This document shows, one piece after another, positions 15,783-57,758 of a stretch of DNA of 64,000 nucleotides (positions are counted from its first letter, which is position 1; every line of letters starts with the position of its first letter). The notes below the pieces were generated by a model. It made no database searches and was not told where the DNA came from. It worked only from the letters and a program-made list of their open reading frames with translations. The stretch lies in IMG/VR virus record IMGVR_UViG_3300027847_001698. One strand, written 5' to 3'. This DNA is from a virus (lineage: Duplodnaviria > Caudoviricetes). The translations under genes and the position numbers were made by a program.

Positions 15783-15807
15783 AAAAAAAGACCCAAGGTC
15801 TCTTTTT
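15783..15807. terminator. AAAAAGACC-loop-GGTCTCTTT terminator family, copy 1
   Basis: Hairpin flanked by A and T runs between convergent genes. Confidence 0.8.
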
Positions 15808-16054
15808 AATTTAACGAGTGGATGTTCAACTGGTTTAGAATCTTGTTATGGATTAGCCAATCAATTTGGCTGTTTGATAACCAGTATAGAATCCCCTGGT
15901 CAACGGTCGTTATTCGATTTGGTATTTCTGTGATAATTATTGACCCGGCTGAATTGAACGTTAGGAATGAAACTCCATTTGATTTGCAAATGAATCCCAA
16001 ATTAGTAACCTCCACAAACTCATCGATACTTTCACCAATGATTTCAACCTTCAT
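15806..16054 (-). CDS. Small hypothetical protein in an antisense cassette
   Basis: 82 aa, GGAG RBS, promoter motif at 16101-16119, terminator at its 3' end. Confidence 0.7.
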   Translation of the reverse strand: MKVEIIGESIDEFVEVTNLGFICKSNGVSFLTFNSAGSIIITEIPNRITTVDQGILYWLSNSQIDWLIHNKILNQLNIHSLN

Positions 16055-20433: not shown

Positions 20434-21879
20434 ATGAAAGATTTACTCCTTGAGTCATATAAAACAACCAAGAAGTTTACTGGTCTAGATCCTTCAAAAC
20501 CTGGATGGATTCGTCAAATTGTAAACAATGACGAACATTTCGATATTTATACAAGATCGTTATGTGAGGGTTTGAAAGAAGAAGATCATAAGGGCTTTAA
20601 GCTCTTGGCTGAAAATACAAGAAAGACGCTGTTAGAGAATTCTCTATACCAGCTCAATCCATATGAAACATTAGCACTTCCTCTGTTAAGAGTTTTCTAT
20701 CCGAAAACTATTGCAAAGGAATTAGTAACTGTTATTCCTATGGACAAGCCAGAAATCGTTAGAGGGTTCGTAAGAGCTACATTTAATAGATTTGGTGATT
20801 CCAATAATTATAATGCACCGTCGAATACTGATATCTCAGCAGGGCCATCTATTGGTACCCCTGTTGTAGCTACAGCGGCAACTAATGCAACTACCGATAT
20901 TTTGGCAGTAGCAGGATTGACCGCAGACGTTGCACATATCGAGAAGACCTTCAAAATTACGAAGGTAACCGATACTGGTCTAGGTGATAGCTTAGAAGTT
21001 GACATTGAGCCTACAGTTGATGGTGAATTTTCAGCATCAGTATCACTTCCTGCCGGAGATGATGTGATCACGGGTCGTATTGATTTTAATACGGGTACTC
21101 TTGATCTTGCATCAGTCAATAGCATTGTAGATACTATTGACTTCACAGCAACAGTATCATTAGAAGAAAACACAATCAATCCTAGAGTAACATTTAATAT
21201 TGATAAGCTGAGACTATTCGCAAAGGATCGTCAGATCTCGACCGAATGGACAATCCAGTACGAGCAAGACATTAAAGCGTTGTTTAATGTCAGCACTCAA
21301 GCAGAACTTGTTTCTGTTATTGGACAGCAAATTGTATTGGATATCGACAGAGAGATTGTCAATTCCCTAATTACAGCAGCAGAGAAGCTTGCCGGTGCAA
21401 GTCACTCAGCTACATTTGCTAAAACACCACCTCCAACGTACACCTGGGGTCCGAAGCAGTGGCTAGAAAATGTCACACCTAAGCTGAACGATCTTAGTGC
21501 TGTAATTTATAACGATACAAACATAGCTGCTGGTAATGTTATTGCTTGCAATCCATTAGACGCTGCTATTTTTGAGTCCTTACAGGATTATCGTTATACT
21601 GGAGGTTCTTCAGAAGATGGTGACTTAGGTTACGAGACTGCCACGGTAAATCACGGAAAATGGAAGGTTCTAGTTTCCAATGTTGTGCCACAAGGTAAAT
21701 CAGTAATTGTTTACAAGCCAACAGAAGAAATTAGAGCGACATATATCTTTAGTCCATATGTTCCTGCCGTACTTACACCGTACCCACTTGGAAATACTCC
21801 GAGTTTAACGGTGTTAAGTCGCTATGGTACACAGTTGATTAGACCTAAGGGTATTGCTGTATTGAATATAGATCCTTGA
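20434..21879 (+). CDS. Major capsid protein (T4 gp23-like)
   Basis: ALPLLRVFYPKTIAKELVTVIPMDKP, KDRQISTEWTIQYEQD, IVLDIDREIVN, YIFSPYVP, SRYG. Confidence 0.92.
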   Translation: MKDLLLESYKTTKKFTGLDPSKPGWIRQIVNNDEHFDIYTRSLCEGLKEEDHKGFKLLAENTRKTLLENSLYQLNPYETLALPLLRVFYPKTIAKELVTVIPMDKPEIVRGFVRATFNRFGDSNNYNAPSNTDISAGPSIGTPVVATAATNATTDILAVAGLTADVAHIEKTFKITKVTDTGLGDSLEVDIEPTVDGEFSASVSLPAGDDVITGRIDFNTGTLDLASVNSIVDTIDFTATVSLEENTINPRVTFNIDKLRLFAKDRQISTEWTIQYEQDIKALFNVSTQAELVSVIGQQIVLDIDREIVNSLITAAEKLAGASHSATFAKTPPPTYTWGPKQWLENVTPKLNDLSAVIYNDTNIAAGNVIACNPLDAAIFESLQDYRYTGGSSEDGDLGYETATVNHGKWKVLVSNVVPQGKSVIVYKPTEEIRATYIFSPYVPAVLTPYPLGNTPSLTVLSRYGTQLIRPKGIAVLNIDP

Positions 21880-21998
21880 TGTTTTAAGTTTCTAGAAAAT
21901 TTTCCCATGTTGTCGAAAGACAGCATGGGGATTTTTCCGGGAATAAGAAATGAGAGGGGGTTATATATTTGTAGAACATATAAAATAAAGGAGTTATT

Positions 21999-23681
21999 AT
22001 GAAAATTGAAATCGAGAAAGCAATAGTTAATATTAATCCTAAAGGAATATCTAGATCTTTGAAATATAAACATCCAGATATTTTAACTATACTAGAAAAG
22101 CATAAAGAAACTCATAAAACATCTAATATATGTGAATCAATATTTTGGATATTAAATGATTTAATTAGCCCTCCATTATGTAGTAACTGTTTAAAAAAAA
22201 TAAAATTTAAAGGTCTAACTATAGGATATCCTGATCCTTGTGTTCAATGTACTTCAGTTAAAAGACAAAAACAGACAACATTAGATCGATATGGTGTAGA
22301 TAATATAAACAAATTAGAATCAACTAAACAAAAAATAAAAGAAACATGTTTAAAACGTTACGGTGTAGAAAGTCATAATAAATTAAAATCAGTAAAAGAT
22401 AAAAAGAAGAAAACACTAATTAAAAATTATGGGGAAGAAGGATTAAAGCATTCTGATATTTTAGAAAAAAGAAGGAAAACATCATTAGACCGATATGGTG
22501 AAGAACATCATCTAAAGACTAAACGGGGGATGGAAAAACAGAAAGCTACATTATTTAAGAATTATGGTGTAGATAGCCCAATGAGAATAAAAGGGATGTC
22601 TGAACGATTTAAAAAAGTATGGGTAGAAAAGAATTTGGAATCATATGTAAAAAGATTGATTAAAGTTAGAGGTTATAAACTAATTTCTAGTTATGTTAAT
22701 TCACATTCTAATATAACGTTAGAATGTGAGAAGGGTCACCATTTTGAAATTCTATGGAATTCATTTCAACAGGGAAATGGTACTTGTCCAGAGTGTTATC
22801 CTTTAAAGAAAGGAATATCTAAACCTGAGAAAGATATAAAAGAATATATTGAATCATTGGGTTTTGAATGTAGTCATAAAAATAGATCTATTATTACTCC
22901 ATATGAGATAGATGTTTTAGTAGACGAAAAAAAATTGGCGATAGAGTATTGTGGTCTATGGTGTCATAGTAGTGGGGGAAATGTCCCATTCACTGCTAGT
23001 CCAGATCAACACTTAAAAAAGTTAAATCGTTGTGAATCTAAAGGGTATCATCTACTAACTATATTTGAAGATGAATGGTTAAATTCAAAAGATGTAGTCC
23101 TATCTATTATAAAATTAAAGTTGGGCAACGTAACTACTAAAATTCCTGCTAGAAAATGTGAAATACGAGAGATCTCATATAAAGTTAAACATGAGTTCAT
23201 AGAATCTAATCATCTTCAAGGTGATAAGGCATCTACTCATAATATTGGCTTATATTATAATGAAGCTCTTGTATCAGTAATGTCCTTTTTATGTTTGAAT
23301 AAACAACATAAAAAATTCGAGATAGCTAGATATTGTACTACCCCAGATACAATTATACAGGGTGGTGGATCTAGATTACTATCTTATTTTAAGAAGAATT
23401 TTGATTGGACTGATCTTATTACATATGCAGATAGAAGATGGTCTACGGGTAACTGTTATCATAAAATGGGATTCGTATTAGATTATACTACAAATCCTAA
23501 TTATTGGTATTGGGGAAAATCTATAAAAGGCAGAAAGCATAGATTAAATTATTCTAAAAGATGTCTTGCACAAATGGAAAGTTATGATGACGAATTATCT
23601 GAATTTCAAATAATGACATTAGAGGGATATTCATGGATTCATGATTGTGGAAATATTAAATTTTCTATAAAAAATATCTAA
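21999..23681 (+). CDS. Free-standing homing-endonuclease-like protein: Zn finger, RYGV repeats, PD-(D/E)XK-like nuclease and C-terminal GNAT/Mom-like domain
   Basis: CxxC pairs, repeated (K/R)YG(V/E), EIDV...AIEYCGLWCHS, then EIARYC...GGGSRLL...TYADRRW...GF. Confidence 0.7.
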   Translation: MKIEIEKAIVNINPKGISRSLKYKHPDILTILEKHKETHKTSNICESIFWILNDLISPPLCSNCLKKIKFKGLTIGYPDPCVQCTSVKRQKQTTLDRYGVDNINKLESTKQKIKETCLKRYGVESHNKLKSVKDKKKKTLIKNYGEEGLKHSDILEKRRKTSLDRYGEEHHLKTKRGMEKQKATLFKNYGVDSPMRIKGMSERFKKVWVEKNLESYVKRLIKVRGYKLISSYVNSHSNITLECEKGHHFEILWNSFQQGNGTCPECYPLKKGISKPEKDIKEYIESLGFECSHKNRSIITPYEIDVLVDEKKLAIEYCGLWCHSSGGNVPFTASPDQHLKKLNRCESKGYHLLTIFEDEWLNSKDVVLSIIKLKLGNVTTKIPARKCEIREISYKVKHEFIESNHLQGDKASTHNIGLYYNEALVSVMSFLCLNKQHKKFEIARYCTTPDTIIQGGGSRLLSYFKKNFDWTDLITYADRRWSTGNCYHKMGFVLDYTTNPNYWYWGKSIKGRKHRLNYSKRCLAQMESYDDELSEFQIMTLEGYSWIHDCGNIKFSIKNI

Positions 23682-23705
23682 AAAAAAGACCCGAAGGTCT
23701 CTTCT
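23680..23705. terminator. AAAAAGACC-CGAA-GGTCTCTT terminator family, copy 2
   Basis: Near-identical to the copies at 15783, 24098 and 63298. Confidence 0.8.
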
Positions 23706-24071
23706 AAAATGATACAGAGCATGGGTCCACCATGTTGATTACTTACGGCTCTTATAGGAGAAATCCTATGCATTTCTGTCGACCGTAATGTCTAGCTTTC
23801 CACGTCACACCCCCACTTCTATTCATGGGAAAATGCCCGATCTATGCCACTAGATACCCAAAAGGAAACTTCTGCATGGATCTGATTATTTGTATGTGTG
23901 TGGGAATAATAATGTTTGGGTTACATTATTATTTGTTATGTCACATGCCATCCACATGCCATCCACAGGTTCTTCTAGTGTCAGAAGAACCTGCTTCATT
24001 CCACAGATTATTTGACTTCTCGTCAAATATGCGAAAGTTATATAGACTTCAACTCTCTTCTGCTTCATTTT
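23706..24071 (-). ncRNA. Candidate ~365-nt structured ncRNA (ncRNA-B)
   Basis: 5' AAAAUGA-a-GCAGA can pair with 3' UCUGU-a-UCAUUUU; perfect 11-bp stems at 23966-23993 and 23905-23933; bounded by a promoter variant and a terminator. Confidence 0.55.
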
Positions 24072-24097
24072 GATATATGTATAGTAGGAATACCCCA

Positions 24098-24122
24098 TAA
24101 AAAGACCCGAAAGTCTCTTTTT
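24098..24122 (-). terminator. AAAAGAC-CCGAAA-GTCTCTTT terminator family, copy 3
   Basis: Hairpin after the minus-strand gene ending at 24135. Confidence 0.7.
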
Positions 24123-24134
24123 ATGAAATGATTA

Positions 24135-24326
24135 TTAGCATTCTTTCTTTCCTAATTGTTTTTTGAAATGAGTTGCCTCTGTTCTGCCCATTCCTGATGC
24201 AATAGGTGTGGCTTCTCCCATAAATATAGGACTTCTCTTTCCTCTTACATCTTCAGCGTAAAATACAGCATACGATCCAGTGTCGTCGCCGTTGTATTTT
24301 TTAATTGAATATTTTCTAGGCTTCAT
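24135..24326 (-). CDS. Small hypothetical protein
   Basis: 63 aa; its start overlaps the stop of the upstream frameshifted gene. Confidence 0.65.
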   Translation of the reverse strand: MKPRKYSIKKYNGDDTGSYAVFYAEDVRGKRSPIFMGEATPIASGMGRTEATHFKKQLGKKEC

Positions 24327-24556
24327 CTTCTGGGTGTCCTATATCGTTAGGTAGTGGAAAGGTAGATTGGATTTTTCCACAATCTGCACAGTATGAGAAA
24401 GTTATCCGGTTACCAGATCCGATTTTTCAGTTCAGGCGGAATATCCCCTTCCCATTCAATCGATCCCATTGTAGCAGCAAACTGCTCTGTACATTTTGCA
24501 GTTACCGATATTAACCTAGTACATATATGTGTAAGTACATCGTCTAGTATTGGCAT
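24316..24556 (-). pseudogene. Frameshifted small CxxC protein (extra A in an A5 run at 24423-24427)
   Basis: AAGGAG RBS, MPILDD...PPELK; removing one A continues IGSGNRITFSYCADCGKIQSTFPLP...EA*, whose stop overlaps the next ATG. Confidence 0.6.
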
Positions 24557-24565
24557 TGTTACTCC

Positions 24566-25042
24566 TTATTGTAGTAGTTCGAATTCATATTGATGGTCAG
24601 ATATATTGAGTTGAACACCAACATCCATACAATTGATATTCTTCCAATCCAATAAAATTGTTGAATGTGGATAATTACTGTCTAATACTAATCTAATAAA
24701 CCATCCACACATGTATCTCTTTTGGACGGCTAACACATTATATATTTTGCCAGTCGTTCTTGATTTAAACCTCCTGTCACGCAACTGATGGGTATCCAAT
24801 ACTATTACTCTTTCCTTTGATTTCCCCACCGATTTGAATTCCTTTTCTACTTTTAATGCTAGACCTGCATCAAATCTATTTCTAGTTCCACTTTCAGACC
24901 ATTCAATGACGTAATCACTATGGGGAAATAACAGACCCCCACCCCCTTCCGATAATTTATTTGAAATGAGGAACGAGTAGTAAAATAGAAATATAATCAT
25001 CATGACAGTAACAACATACAATACAATAGAACCCATATCCAA
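24566..25042 (-). CDS. Hypothetical membrane-anchored protein
   Basis: N-terminal hydrophobic helix, 158 aa. Confidence 0.65.
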   Translation of the reverse strand: MDMGSIVLYVVTVMMIIFLFYYSFLISNKLSEGGGGLLFPHSDYVIEWSESGTRNRFDAGLALKVEKEFKSVGKSKERVIVLDTHQLRDRRFKSRTTGKIYNVLAVQKRYMCGWFIRLVLDSNYPHSTILLDWKNINCMDVGVQLNISDHQYEFELLQ

Positions 25043-25216
25043 TCTCCGTTAAAAATTAATGTTCAAAGATAAATATATATATAATAGTATATTAAAAAAA
25101 GGGAATTTCCTCCCCCATTCTTAGACTTAGTTAAACGAATTTATCTGTGCTAAAAGATAAATATATAAAAGATGACACCCATAGGGTACAATGAAAATAC
25201 CCTAGGGGTGTACATT

Positions 25217-25660
25217 TTAGATGCAGTTGGTAATGTCGTAAAGCTCACCACCAAACATCATTTCTGTTACTCCACGACCCAATGCCTTCCGCAACATTGT
25301 CTTTGTGCCTTTTAATGTTTTGAATTCTGCTGGTTTGAACGTCCCATTGACTTCTAAGAAGCTAACACTGATGGCATCTTCCGGGATGTCATCGAGTCTG
25401 AATTCATTGATTGTGGGTTCACTCACAAGAATTGGATCATCCTTGATGGCCAGGATGGGGGGATGAGGAGTACCCAATTCAACTACTTGAACGTCAGGAG
25501 CCTGATAAGGAGTAATAGGATACTTCTTGAGCAGTTCCCTTGTTAAACGATGTCCAGCCCCAATCAGATATTTCTTGAGGTTACTGGTCACCAACCTGTA
25601 TTGTTTGTCGTAGTCACCAATCTGCAGATTTGGATCTGGGTACATGAACTTCTTTTCCAT
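25217..25660 (-). CDS. Hypothetical protein
   Basis: ATG at 25660 with GGAG RBS; promoter motif at 25701; hairpin at 25173-25213 downstream. Confidence 0.7.
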   Translation of the reverse strand: MEKKFMYPDPNLQIGDYDKQYRLVTSNLKKYLIGAGHRLTRELLKKYPITPYQAPDVQVVELGTPHPPILAIKDDPILVSEPTINEFRLDDIPEDAISVSFLEVNGTFKPAEFKTLKGTKTMLRKALGRGVTEMMFGGELYDITNCI

Positions 25661-25700
25661 AACATCTCCATAGGATGTTGGGTTAAATGTTATATTCAAA

Positions 25701-25719
25701 AATTAATATATATAGACAA
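25701..25719 (-). promoter_or_regulatory. Recurring promoter motif TTGTCTATATATATTAATT
   Basis: Identical to the 16101 copy. Confidence 0.7.
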
Positions 25720-25810
25720 TATTGTGTTATAACGGCCCACATATAAGAACAAAATTATAATAAACTTTTTTTTAAGATGAACTTATAAAGTGATGCTTTA
25801 GGAGAATTAG

Positions 25811-26374
25811 ATGGATTTTCATGGAATTGATATGCAAGGGCCGTTTATCACGGAACGAGTTTCTGTTATTCCTCCCGCTCAAGAAGCTATAGATGAACCA
25901 GGACGTTTCATATTCAACCTAGCAGATGAAACTACTTATGTTGGAACAAGTACAGGTTGGAGAGGGGTAGTTGGAACAGGGCCAGGAATTACTAACCACT
26001 CCCAATTACAAGGATTACTTAATGATGATCATGATCAATACGCTTTAAGAACTGATTTAGAATCAGGAGGAGATCAAGATGTAGACTGGTCTAGATTAGT
26101 AAGTACCCCAAGTCAAATAACTAGTCTGTCATCTAATCAATTATTTGATGCATTAGATGCTAACTCTAAAAACATTGTTAATGTAGATAAATTAAATGTG
26201 GGTGCAGCAACTACTCCTACTGAACGAATTGAAGTTTCTAGTGCTATAAAAATTGGAATGTCGTTAGGTAGTGCTGATGGTACTATTAGATGGACTGGAT
26301 CTGATTTTGAAGGTAGAAAAGCTGGAGCATGGGTATCATTAACTGGTGCTAATGAAGGAGGGTGGTTTAACTAA
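25811..26374 (+). CDS. Virion/tail structural protein
   Basis: NHSQLQGLLNDDHDQY and RWTGSDFEG...WVSL motifs seen in tail fibre-associated proteins. Confidence 0.65.
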   Translation: MDFHGIDMQGPFITERVSVIPPAQEAIDEPGRFIFNLADETTYVGTSTGWRGVVGTGPGITNHSQLQGLLNDDHDQYALRTDLESGGDQDVDWSRLVSTPSQITSLSSNQLFDALDANSKNIVNVDKLNVGAATTPTERIEVSSAIKIGMSLGSADGTIRWTGSDFEGRKAGAWVSLTGANEGGWFN

Positions 26375-35135: not shown

Positions 35136-35196
35136 AAATGAATAATAAATATAAGTTATAAAAAAACCATTGGGGTCATGAAGACCCCCATTAGTT

Positions 35197-35295
35197 CTAG
35201 ATGACCACCTTCTTCTTTTTGACTTTTTTTCTATTAGTCATCCTTACCAGCACCAACCCCATAAACAGGATCGAAACGACAATTTTTCTTTTCAT
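35197..35295 (-). CDS. 32-aa basic/hydrophobic peptide (MKRKIVVSILFMGLVLVRMTNRKKVKKKKVVI), absent from the ORF track
   Basis: GGAG RBS, promoter motif at 35361-35379, hairpin at 35168-35192 downstream. Confidence 0.55.
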   Translation of the reverse strand: MKRKIVVSILFMGLVLVRMTNRKKVKKKKVVI

Positions 35296-35384
35296 GGCAA
35301 TTCTCCGTTAGTTTTATTTGTATAAGTCATTTTATACAAATATTATTGTTAGTTCCCATAAATAAATATATATAGACAAAAATA

Positions 35385-36385: not shown

Positions 36386-36497
36386 CTTATCCCCCTTAGG
36401 TTTGAGTTAAACTATATGCACATGTTTCTATTCATGGGTGTATATATATAGACAAAAATAAAGATTAGGTAGAAACCTTCCGAACAAAAATAAAAAA

Positions 36498-53788: not shown

Positions 53789-54014
53789 AATAAGATTGAA
53801 AAAAGAGCCCAACTCCCCGAATATCGGGGAATCTGTCCTTCCTTCAAATCGCTATTAAAATCTGGAATTTATAGAATTTATGGCATAACTTTTGGCATCG
53901 TGTCAGAACTAGGTCTGACTTTGTAATATAATTACACATCGCCTCTCTCCTAGTAAAAGTTGGTAGTTAAAATAAGAGTTTTGTACGTATCATGAGTCAA
54001 TATATATGGAGTTC

Positions 54015-54245: not shown

Positions 54246-54474
54246 AATCTAATCCTTTAGATGTTTTAGATGGTTATATGTTTTCCTTTCTCACATATAG
54301 ATATATGTAGAAGGGTCAATTGAAACCAAATAAAATTAAGGAACAAAAATTAACATTATATTAGAACCTAAAAATCACAAAAAGATGTTATATGAATCAG
54401 TATCTGTTACATTATACACAGAAAGTTTATATGAAAACTAGAGGCGTGAATGTTAACCCCCAGAAGACGCGGAA

Positions 54475-57033: not shown

Positions 57034-57044
57034 AATCCATACAA

Positions 57045-57692
57045 AAAAAATGAGAGGGGGTCTAGTCCCTTCCCATTTTTTTGTAACCGCAATTACATTT
57101 AAGATTTTCATCCTAGTCGCCGATTGTCTGTGTATAGACCAGTTATTTAGCGTGTCCTTAAATAACATTCTTTGCTAACCACTTTTCCCGTAAAAGGAGG
57201 ATAGTTAACTTAGATACACATAGAGAAGCTCAACGTCAAACTCCTGTTACAAAGTTTAAGATTCTTCTCTGTCGGGGATAATACCGAAGTAGGAACTTTC
57301 GGTCGGACCATGGATCTTGAACCATATTGTGGGGTGACTGAGATTAATCCTAGTTTAGTTTAATACAAGTGGAACCGTCATTTACCTAAAATCTCTTTCC
57401 ACTTTAAAAACCGAACACGATAAGACTAACCGTCCCATGACATAAATCAACAATTCAAATAAAACAGATCAGTCGTAATTGGTGGCTGGGAAGTCGCAAA
57501 TACTCTCCGTTAACAATTACATCTATCCTATCGTCCTCGTCAAATGTCGAAAATACAAGGGAAATGTTTCGCCTGTATTTTCAAGTTTTCGAAAAGAATA
57601 TTACATGTACACGAATCAAAATGATTTAGCTTCTCTGCTCAGGCGAAGCTGATCAAATCGACATCATATAACAAAACTCTCGTCCTCTCATA
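57045..57692 (-). ncRNA. Candidate ~640-nt structured ncRNA (ncRNA-C) including its terminator
   Basis: No ORF of 60 aa or more within it apart from a spurious overlap at the edge; promoter variant at 57694-57710; terminator at 57042-57082; at least six local stems plus 5'/3' complementarity. Confidence 0.65.
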
Positions 57693-57758
57693 ATTTAATA
57701 TATATAGATATAGAAATCTAAAATCAGGTAGATAATACTCTACCTTATTTTTCAGTCA

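Follow-up and report, generated by a model that had tools for sequence, protein, structure and literature searches.

On balance, positions 23680 to 24071 of the minus strand are best regarded as a stand-alone gene for an abundant noncoding RNA (ncRNA) of about 390 nt, designated ncRNA-B, in an uncultured marine jumbo phage of about 229 kb. Positions are those of the window, that is, the whole 64,000-nt stretch of DNA that was analyzed. An earlier note on this DNA had proposed an undescribed phage ncRNA at this site. The independent, expressed, ORF-less unit and the lack of an Rfam match bore out this proposal, whereas a conserved specific fold and a pseudoknot were not supported.

Transcription unit and genomic neighborhood

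Read along the minus strand, the 63-aa gene (24135-24326) ended at 24135 and was followed by a hairpin with a U run, the word CTATACATATAT, about 390 nt, and a second, nearly identical hairpin with eight U residues. The first hairpin (24095-24125, UUCG-type loop and U run) is the intrinsic terminator of the 63-aa gene, and the promoter-family motif CTATACATATAT lies just past it at 24073-24084. The second hairpin (23680-23705) is the terminator of ncRNA-B, a strong canonical one with a 10-bp stem and U8, whose U run is overlapped by the stop codon (23679-23681) of the endonuclease gene. Both hairpins are copies of one family. The terminator unit AGAC(C/T)TTCGGGTCTTTTT was present at 23700-23683, 24116-24099, and 63317-63300, on the minus strand in all three cases, compared with 0.12 copies expected by chance in the 64-kb window. 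A fourth, slightly diverged hairpin of the family was detected at 15783-15808, between two plus-strand genes.

The promoter-like word CTAYAYATATAT was matched 13 times in the window with at most one mismatch, 12 times on the minus strand, and the match at 24084-24073 was perfect. The aligned strong members of the promoter family read (T)GTCTATATATAT, of which the ncRNA-B copy is a variant, and sites of this family precede small minus-strand genes as well as ncRNA-C, a second unit in the same window. At six or seven of about fifteen family sites, an ATG was located 2-10 nt past the motif, with or without an ORF (sites concerned: 24073-24084, 35364-35375, 36440-36451, 54000-54011, 54299-54310, and 57702-57713). 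This recurrent ATG may belong to the signal by which the phage polymerase initiates. The transcript of ncRNA-B would start a few bases past the motif, at about 24071-24066, and would end in the U run at 23687-23680, giving the predicted length of about 390 nt.

The proteins encoded on the flanks were looked up in public assemblies. Many contigs were 100% identical in DNA sequence, and two diverged alleles were obtained, one in L022 (the same as in L034) and one in L039; a search for further ncRNA-B alleles through the neighboring proteins found only these two and that of the window. The longest contig carrying the 63-aa gene measured 229,015 nt, and the major capsid protein shared only 24% identity with its counterparts in phiR1-37-type jumbo phages. 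ncRNA-B is located at the end of a minus-strand accessory island of 160/147-aa, 158/156-aa, 48-aa, and 63-aa genes. This island interrupts a plus-strand block of late structural genes, with the capsid gene (20434-21879) and the endonuclease gene on one side and tail-fiber-like genes (187 aa and 1356 aa) on the other.

The 63-aa gene upstream of ncRNA-B was identical in all three alleles. Its product had no Pfam or PHROG match, and the proteins that its ESM Atlas model resembled were small viral ones of AP2/ERF-like and DUF2188-like type (TM 0.58-0.60). As a lead only, this resemblance would point to nucleic-acid binding. The 156-aa neighbor was an orphan for which no relatives were found. The small genes further upstream differed by allele, with a 48-aa gene in the window (24408-24529), 54-aa and 91-aa genes in L034 (5492-5930), and a 66-aa gene in L039 (342-720); the island is a local hot spot of gene turnover in which the 63-aa gene is unchanged.

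On its other side, ncRNA-B is convergent with an endonuclease gene, as the earlier note had described; the gene lies on the plus strand at 21999-23681 and encodes a 560-aa homing endonuclease (phrog_3339, E 9e-115). It belongs to a swappable cassette (window 21938-23673; L033: 328-2031; L017: 4655-6063). From the capsid terminator (about 21938) to 23673, contigs carried either this endonuclease gene or a pair of genes, on the strand of the RNA, for a 99-aa protein and a 439-aa protein that contains several zinc fingers of the C2H2 type. Toward the RNA, homology ended at 23673, and many assemblies broke exactly there. In L017, L019, L033, and L035-L039, the 99-aa and 439-aa genes came about 100 nt after the ncRNA-B terminator, on the strand of the RNA, and no promoter word was found between the terminator and these genes. 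A single ncRNA-B allele, 100% identical, accompanied both arrangements, and this speaks against a function linked to one cassette or the other. Over the last 86 codons of the capsid gene (21617-21938 versus L033: 1-327), the two cassette forms encoded an identical protein in DNA that was only 82% identical, compared with about 99% in other parts; it looks as if the target of a homing endonuclease had been recoded synonymously.

The promoter variant and the bounding family terminator were thus found on the minus strand where the earlier note had placed them (motif 24084-24073, terminator 23705-23680), and both were intact in all three alleles and in both neighboring gene contexts. As is generally expected of a stand-alone ncRNA gene, ncRNA-B has a promoter and a terminator of its own, as judged from the sequence and with a predicted start site.

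Expression in seawater and coding potential

Public runs were searched with positions 23600-24400, an 801-nt query that included the 63-aa gene and the end of the endonuclease gene, and six seawater metatranscriptomes from six studies were matched. Contigs from four of the runs, each from a different study, were placed on positions 22000-26000. Each run contributed one contig, and all four fell inside the unit (23730-24058, 23749-24048, 23793-24041, and 23782-24045), so that the part covered extends from 23730 to 24058. The contigs were 249-329 nt long, matched the window at 99-100% identity, and had no loose ends. No contig from the four runs was located on the 63-aa gene, the endonuclease gene, or the other island genes within 22000-26000. 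Lack of contig cover proves nothing by itself, and it was used here only together with the presence of uncovered neighbors in the query; because the uncovered 63-aa gene and endonuclease end lay in the query, the confinement of the contigs to the unit is not merely an effect of the choice of runs. The longest contig stopped at 23730, short of the terminator and of the 3' strand of the closing helix described below. ncRNA-B appears to be expressed, and the contigs fit an RNA whose abundance or stability far exceeds that of the neighboring mRNAs. The earlier note had made its proposal depend on a discrete transcript of about 365 nt. RNA of the expected place and size class was present in four studies, in contigs that carry no strand, ends, or level.

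On the minus strand, the longest reading frames in ncRNA-B were 70 and 60 aa; the longest on the plus strand was 82 aa. Gaps of 34, 3, and 1 nt in L022 shifted both the 70-aa and the 82-aa frames. The 60-aa frame met TAG after codon 23 in L022 and L039; its 23 N-terminal codons (MKQKRVEV...) were kept in all alleles with one nonsynonymous change. Among 5.8 billion proteins, the 60-aa frame matched only itself. When 1.84 billion representatives were searched exhaustively with HMMER, the frame itself was recovered together with two repeat-inflated matches, one to a GYR/YLP repeat protein, with a weak score summed over many repeats, and one to a trypsin-domain protein; both were judged spurious. 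The ATG of the 60-aa frame is located 4 nt past the promoter word, as is also the case at several other promoters of the family that lack an ORF.

The earlier note had dismissed the overlapping ORFs of 60-70 aa as spurious, partly because they lack a ribosome-binding site. No such site precedes any ATG in ncRNA-B, but this argument is weak because only 26 of the 71 long ORFs of the phage (37%) carry the core Shine-Dalgarno word. The dismissal itself held: as in ncRNA genes generally, no reading frame was conserved, the frames being shifted or truncated in the natural alleles L022 and L039, and no credible protein relatives were found. Conservation of the reading frame among homologs, which that note had named as evidence against an ncRNA, was not observed. 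By the available tests, ncRNA-B is noncoding, and a 23-aa peptide is possible. Another minus-strand unit of the same promoter family (35170-35375) contains the promoter word, a perfect 10-bp hairpin, a GGAG ribosome site, and a terminator; its frame of about 32 aa, which was outside the ORF list owing to its size, encodes a small membrane-type peptide (MKRKIVVSILFMG...).

Predicted fold and allelic variation

In the minimum-free-energy fold, the 5' end of ncRNA-B (24071-24059) paired with its 3' end (23718-23706) to form a predicted closing helix of 12 bp around one A/A mismatch; in one allele, a U-to-C change at 23712 breaks an end pair. Within this helix, an 8-bp hairpin with a GAGAA loop (24009-24029), invariant among the alleles, is followed in the window allele by a 13-bp hairpin (23994-23965). 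An A/U-rich 11-bp hairpin with the loop AACCCAA comes next and is invariant together with its 5' flank (23905-23940). The 3' domain (23719-23876), also invariant, contains UUACGG/CCGUAA around an AUAGGA-UUUC-UCCUAU hairpin, and a CAUGG-UGGAC-CCAUG hairpin. The fold holds the hairpins at 23933-23905, 23769-23754, and 23732-23718 as well as the UUACGG/CCGUAA pairing. All helices that the earlier note had listed, including the closing helix and both perfect 11-bp hairpins, were recovered in it, and the main helices had pair probabilities of 0.8-1.0 in all three alleles. The paired ends and the mature ends stay predictions because the contigs do not define the ends and all stop short of the 3' strand of the closing helix.

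Two of the 10 perfect hairpins of at least 10 bp in the 64-kb window are located within the 390 nt of ncRNA-B. Compared with shuffled sequences, the folding energy gave a z value of -3.65 for the window allele and of -4.27 and -3.02 for the other two, and 64 control windows from the same phage had a mean z of -1.0 (sd 1.4). The minus strand folded 9 kcal/mol better than the plus strand. The thermodynamic signal is real; it is modest and not unique, because 3-4 of the 64 control windows reached the ncRNA-B value and the plus strand of ncRNA-B folds nearly as well. Analysis of the three alleles with RNAalifold showed a compensatory change in none of the 106 predicted pairs, which, with alleles so nearly identical, is not evidence against the fold. 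Conserved structured RNAs such as OLE, GOLLD, ROOL, and RNase P have helices that are backed by compensatory changes, and no helix of ncRNA-B is so backed. The covariation check suggested in the earlier note therefore left the helices as predictions and gave no support for a conserved specific fold. The same note had suggested a pseudoknot between CCCACACAC and GUGGGGGUGUG. This pairing was rejected because two alleles have a different sequence in place of the first, C-rich strand but retain the second, G-rich strand unchanged.

Outside hot spots, the L034 lineage differed from the window by 0.8%. The identity of the 5' 70 nt and the 3' 200 nt of ncRNA-B among the alleles is no sign of selection because, at an overall divergence of about 0.8%, drift suffices to explain it. 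Hypervariable patch 1 (23941-24000) could not be aligned between alleles. In the window allele, it contains the 13-bp hairpin, flanked by CTGTGG repeats, and a tandem GTGGATGGCAT; it is replaced by 26 nt in L022 and by 49 nt with a different small hairpin in L039. The 34 nt that L022 lacks are exactly the 13-bp hairpin between two CTGTGG words, and the small hairpin of L039 stands between 9-nt GGATGGCAT repeats. The variation in this patch also includes a tandem 11-nt duplication, and its inserts look like products of slippage or insertion. The absence of the 13-bp hairpin from two alleles implies that at least part of the predicted structure is dispensable.

Hypervariable patch 2 (23877-23904), which includes CCCACACAC, showed about 13 differences in 28 nt (about 45%). 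Between the two patches, the 36-nt block with the A/U-rich hairpin was invariant, and this contrast with its variable flanks is the one comparative sign of constraint. Coupling between the patches was assessed from double differences in folding energy between native and chimeric combinations; the values obtained (ddG of +0.7 and -4.8 kcal/mol, null sd about 3.3) were not significant. The energies from duplexfold of the variable arm against the allele-specific upstream genes were uninformative, with no clear cognate preference. The longest complementary words in the window were 12-13 nt, as expected by chance.

Relatives, alternative explanations, and possible role

No match to Rfam 15 was obtained at gathering scores over the whole window. 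Below threshold (E up to 10), the best models for 23400-24400 were snoRNA and miRNA models at 15-24 bits, compared with cut-offs of 40-70, which is the level of chance. ARAGORN identified no tRNA or tmRNA gene in the window. The failure of the earlier note to match the sequence to tmRNA, RNase P, SRP, 6S, or a group I intron was thus upheld. Of the checks that it had named, cmscan yielded no family and a blastn search with distant settings matched nothing in 50,697 phage records. Short words were searched in larger collections. A 17-mer of the invariant domain gave nine chance matches only in IMG/VR, where the hairpin 23-mer gave none; a 22-mer was found in two JGI metagenome contigs, both from the same phage, and a 20-mer was absent from GTDB genomes. 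The hairpin 23-mer led in GTDB to an exact match of 25 nt (L051: 7236-7260) on a 778-kb contig of a Nitrosopumilaceae MAG. This match spans the invariant A/U hairpin stem and the AACCCAA loop, lies in an ORF-poor, repeat-rich stretch with no other similarity to the window, and was judged to be probably due to chance. Around the capsid genes of distant relatives (L001-L005; 36% identity), neither such an island nor any similarity was present, and relatives of the 63-aa gene in other phages (55-67% identity) were directly followed by protein genes, with no such RNA. As far as can be seen, ncRNA-B is confined to one phage population.

Two specific classes were considered and rejected. A group I or group II intron would interrupt a host gene, possess the ribozyme core, and enclose the endonuclease ORF on its own strand. 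Neither such an intron nor a remnant of one fits, as no intron model matched, the endonuclease gene stands by itself beyond the unit and on the other strand, and no split gene flanks it. Sponges of the CsrB/Rsm type carry GGA words many times more often than expected, chiefly in the loops of hairpins. Some GGA words of ncRNA-B are located in predicted loops (GGAUG and UGGAC), as in CsrB/RsmZ, and GGAUGGCAU is duplicated in two alleles; in contrast, the number of GGA words is at expectation (6 observed versus 6.4 in shuffled sequences). GUGGA was enriched in the window allele (5 versus 0.4) but occurred only twice in the other alleles.

To our knowledge, phage ncRNAs of several hundred bases have been described in only a few cultured jumbo phages, and none of them has a known function. 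ncRNA-C (57042-57710) in the same window resembles ncRNA-B in its promoter family, its minus-strand orientation, its lack of an ORF, and the pairing of its 5' end with its 3' end beside a U-run terminator; it is longer (about 600 nt versus 390 nt), and paralogy of the two is unsupported because their similarity is limited to a 10-nt word. The large RNAs in Rfam (GOLLD, ROOL, HEARO, IMES-1 to -4, 6S, tmRNA, and RNase P) share with ncRNA-B abundance in marine libraries, multiple hairpins, and end-to-end pairing, but ncRNA-B matches none of them and does not have a covariation-supported architecture. The jumbo phage PA5oct transcribes four orphan, ORF-free RNAs of 236-619 nt with no known function (ncRNA001-004), two of which are among its most abundant transcripts; this phage relies on the RNA polymerase of its host, and RNA-seq of infected cultures served to define its ncRNAs, for which no promoters were known (Lood et al. 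2020, PMC7318152). ncRNA-B is similar to these RNAs in being an ORF-free jumbo-phage RNA of comparable size without sequence relatives or known function. It differs in coming from an uncultured phage and in having a recognizable promoter word and terminator, and no sequence similarity between them was found in the search of 50,697 phage records. Transcript mapping in the giant phages 201phi2-1 and phiKZ revealed sRNAs in short promoter-to-terminator units, one of them kept by position in related phages; these sRNAs are shorter than 250 nt, and most of them are 5' UTR products of transcription that ends prematurely, upstream of a gene (Microb Biotechnol 2024, PMC11512511). In contrast, ncRNA-B is larger and free-standing and has no conserved downstream gene.

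Several other explanations of the unit were weighed. It is unlikely, though not negligibly so, that ncRNA-B is a transcribed but functionless remnant, that is, a decayed small gene or spacer whose hairpins and repeat-flanked inserts arose by neutral palindromic insertion and slippage. The hairpin flanked by 6-nt repeats, the tandem 11-nt duplication, and the L039 insert flanked by 9-nt repeats would suit unconstrained DNA, as would the lack of covariation and relatives and a flank identity that low divergence explains. Neutral decay, however, does not predict a 36-nt hairpin block that is invariant between patches differing by about 45%, and the presence of ncRNA-B but not its neighbors in four RNA libraries requires a strong promoter, a stable RNA, or both. 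The retention of the unit with intact signals in all three alleles and both gene contexts also speaks against a remnant. We regard it as improbable that the transcript is the mRNA of a micro-protein, encoded either by the shared 23 N-terminal codons, perhaps leaderless, or by frames of 24 and 31 aa in the invariant 3' domain. In its favor, those 23 codons are kept in all alleles with one nonsynonymous change, the absence of a Shine-Dalgarno word says little in a phage where only 37% of long ORFs have one, and a small membrane peptide is encoded by a unit with the same type of promoter (35375 to about 35170). That unit, however, has a clear GGAG site, whereas ncRNA-B has none before any ATG. 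The 23-codon frame runs on for 37 codons in one allele and stops in the others, no protein relative was found, and about 300 nt would be left untranslated; moreover, an ATG soon after the promoter word recurs where no ORF follows.

A cis-acting element, serving as an attenuating leader of the 99-aa/439-aa cassette or as an antisense silencer of endonuclease read-through, seems quite improbable. In other contigs, the 99-aa and 439-aa genes do follow on the same strand about 100 nt past the terminator with no promoter word between. Because the endonuclease stop codon overlaps the ncRNA-B terminator and no U run is present on the plus strand, endonuclease transcripts must enter the RNA gene in antisense. 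One 100%-identical allele nevertheless serves both arrangements and so is tailored to neither, the terminator is strong and canonical, and no riboswitch or leader family was matched. Least credible is an element that works as DNA, for example, a site of replication or packaging or a target of recombination or homing, with the RNA as an incidental product. Perfect palindromes fold equally on both strands, and the unit borders the swap junction at 23673; on the other side of the cassette, the end of the capsid gene encodes an identical protein in recoded DNA (82% identity), as at homing sites. Nevertheless, the junction lies outside the RNA, separated from the variable region by about 200 invariant nt, and the largest palindrome is missing from two alleles; in addition, the promoter, the U-run terminator, and the G-U pairs are strand-specific, and the RNA was found in metatranscriptomes.

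If ncRNA-B is a stand-alone RNA gene, as we favor, the 12-bp helix joining its ends and its string of hairpins would stabilize the RNA. The conserved 5' and 3' parts may form a scaffold, and the hypervariable central arm may be either dispensable or the part that confers specificity. During infection, the RNA might work in trans, either as a base-pairing RNA or as a decoy or sponge that captures a factor of the host or the phage; this mechanism is a guess. A more specific version, in which ncRNA-B is an early and highly abundant effector RNA, acting as a decoy or sponge for a factor of host defense or RNA handling or as a base-pairing regulator, and its invariant scaffold displays alleles of an arm engaged in an arms race, is speculative and rather doubtful. 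The equally variable small genes of the same island would fit this arms-race picture.

With clean gene signals, signs of expression at sea in four studies, and three alleles that localize variation to one arm around an invariant hairpin, ncRNA-B is a well-delimited candidate for RNA work rather than a new principle. A widespread uncultured phage appears to spend promoter strength on at least two ORF-less RNAs, ncRNA-B and ncRNA-C. If the variable arm is a specificity element, ncRNA-B would be an RNA counterpart of fast-evolving anti-defense proteins.
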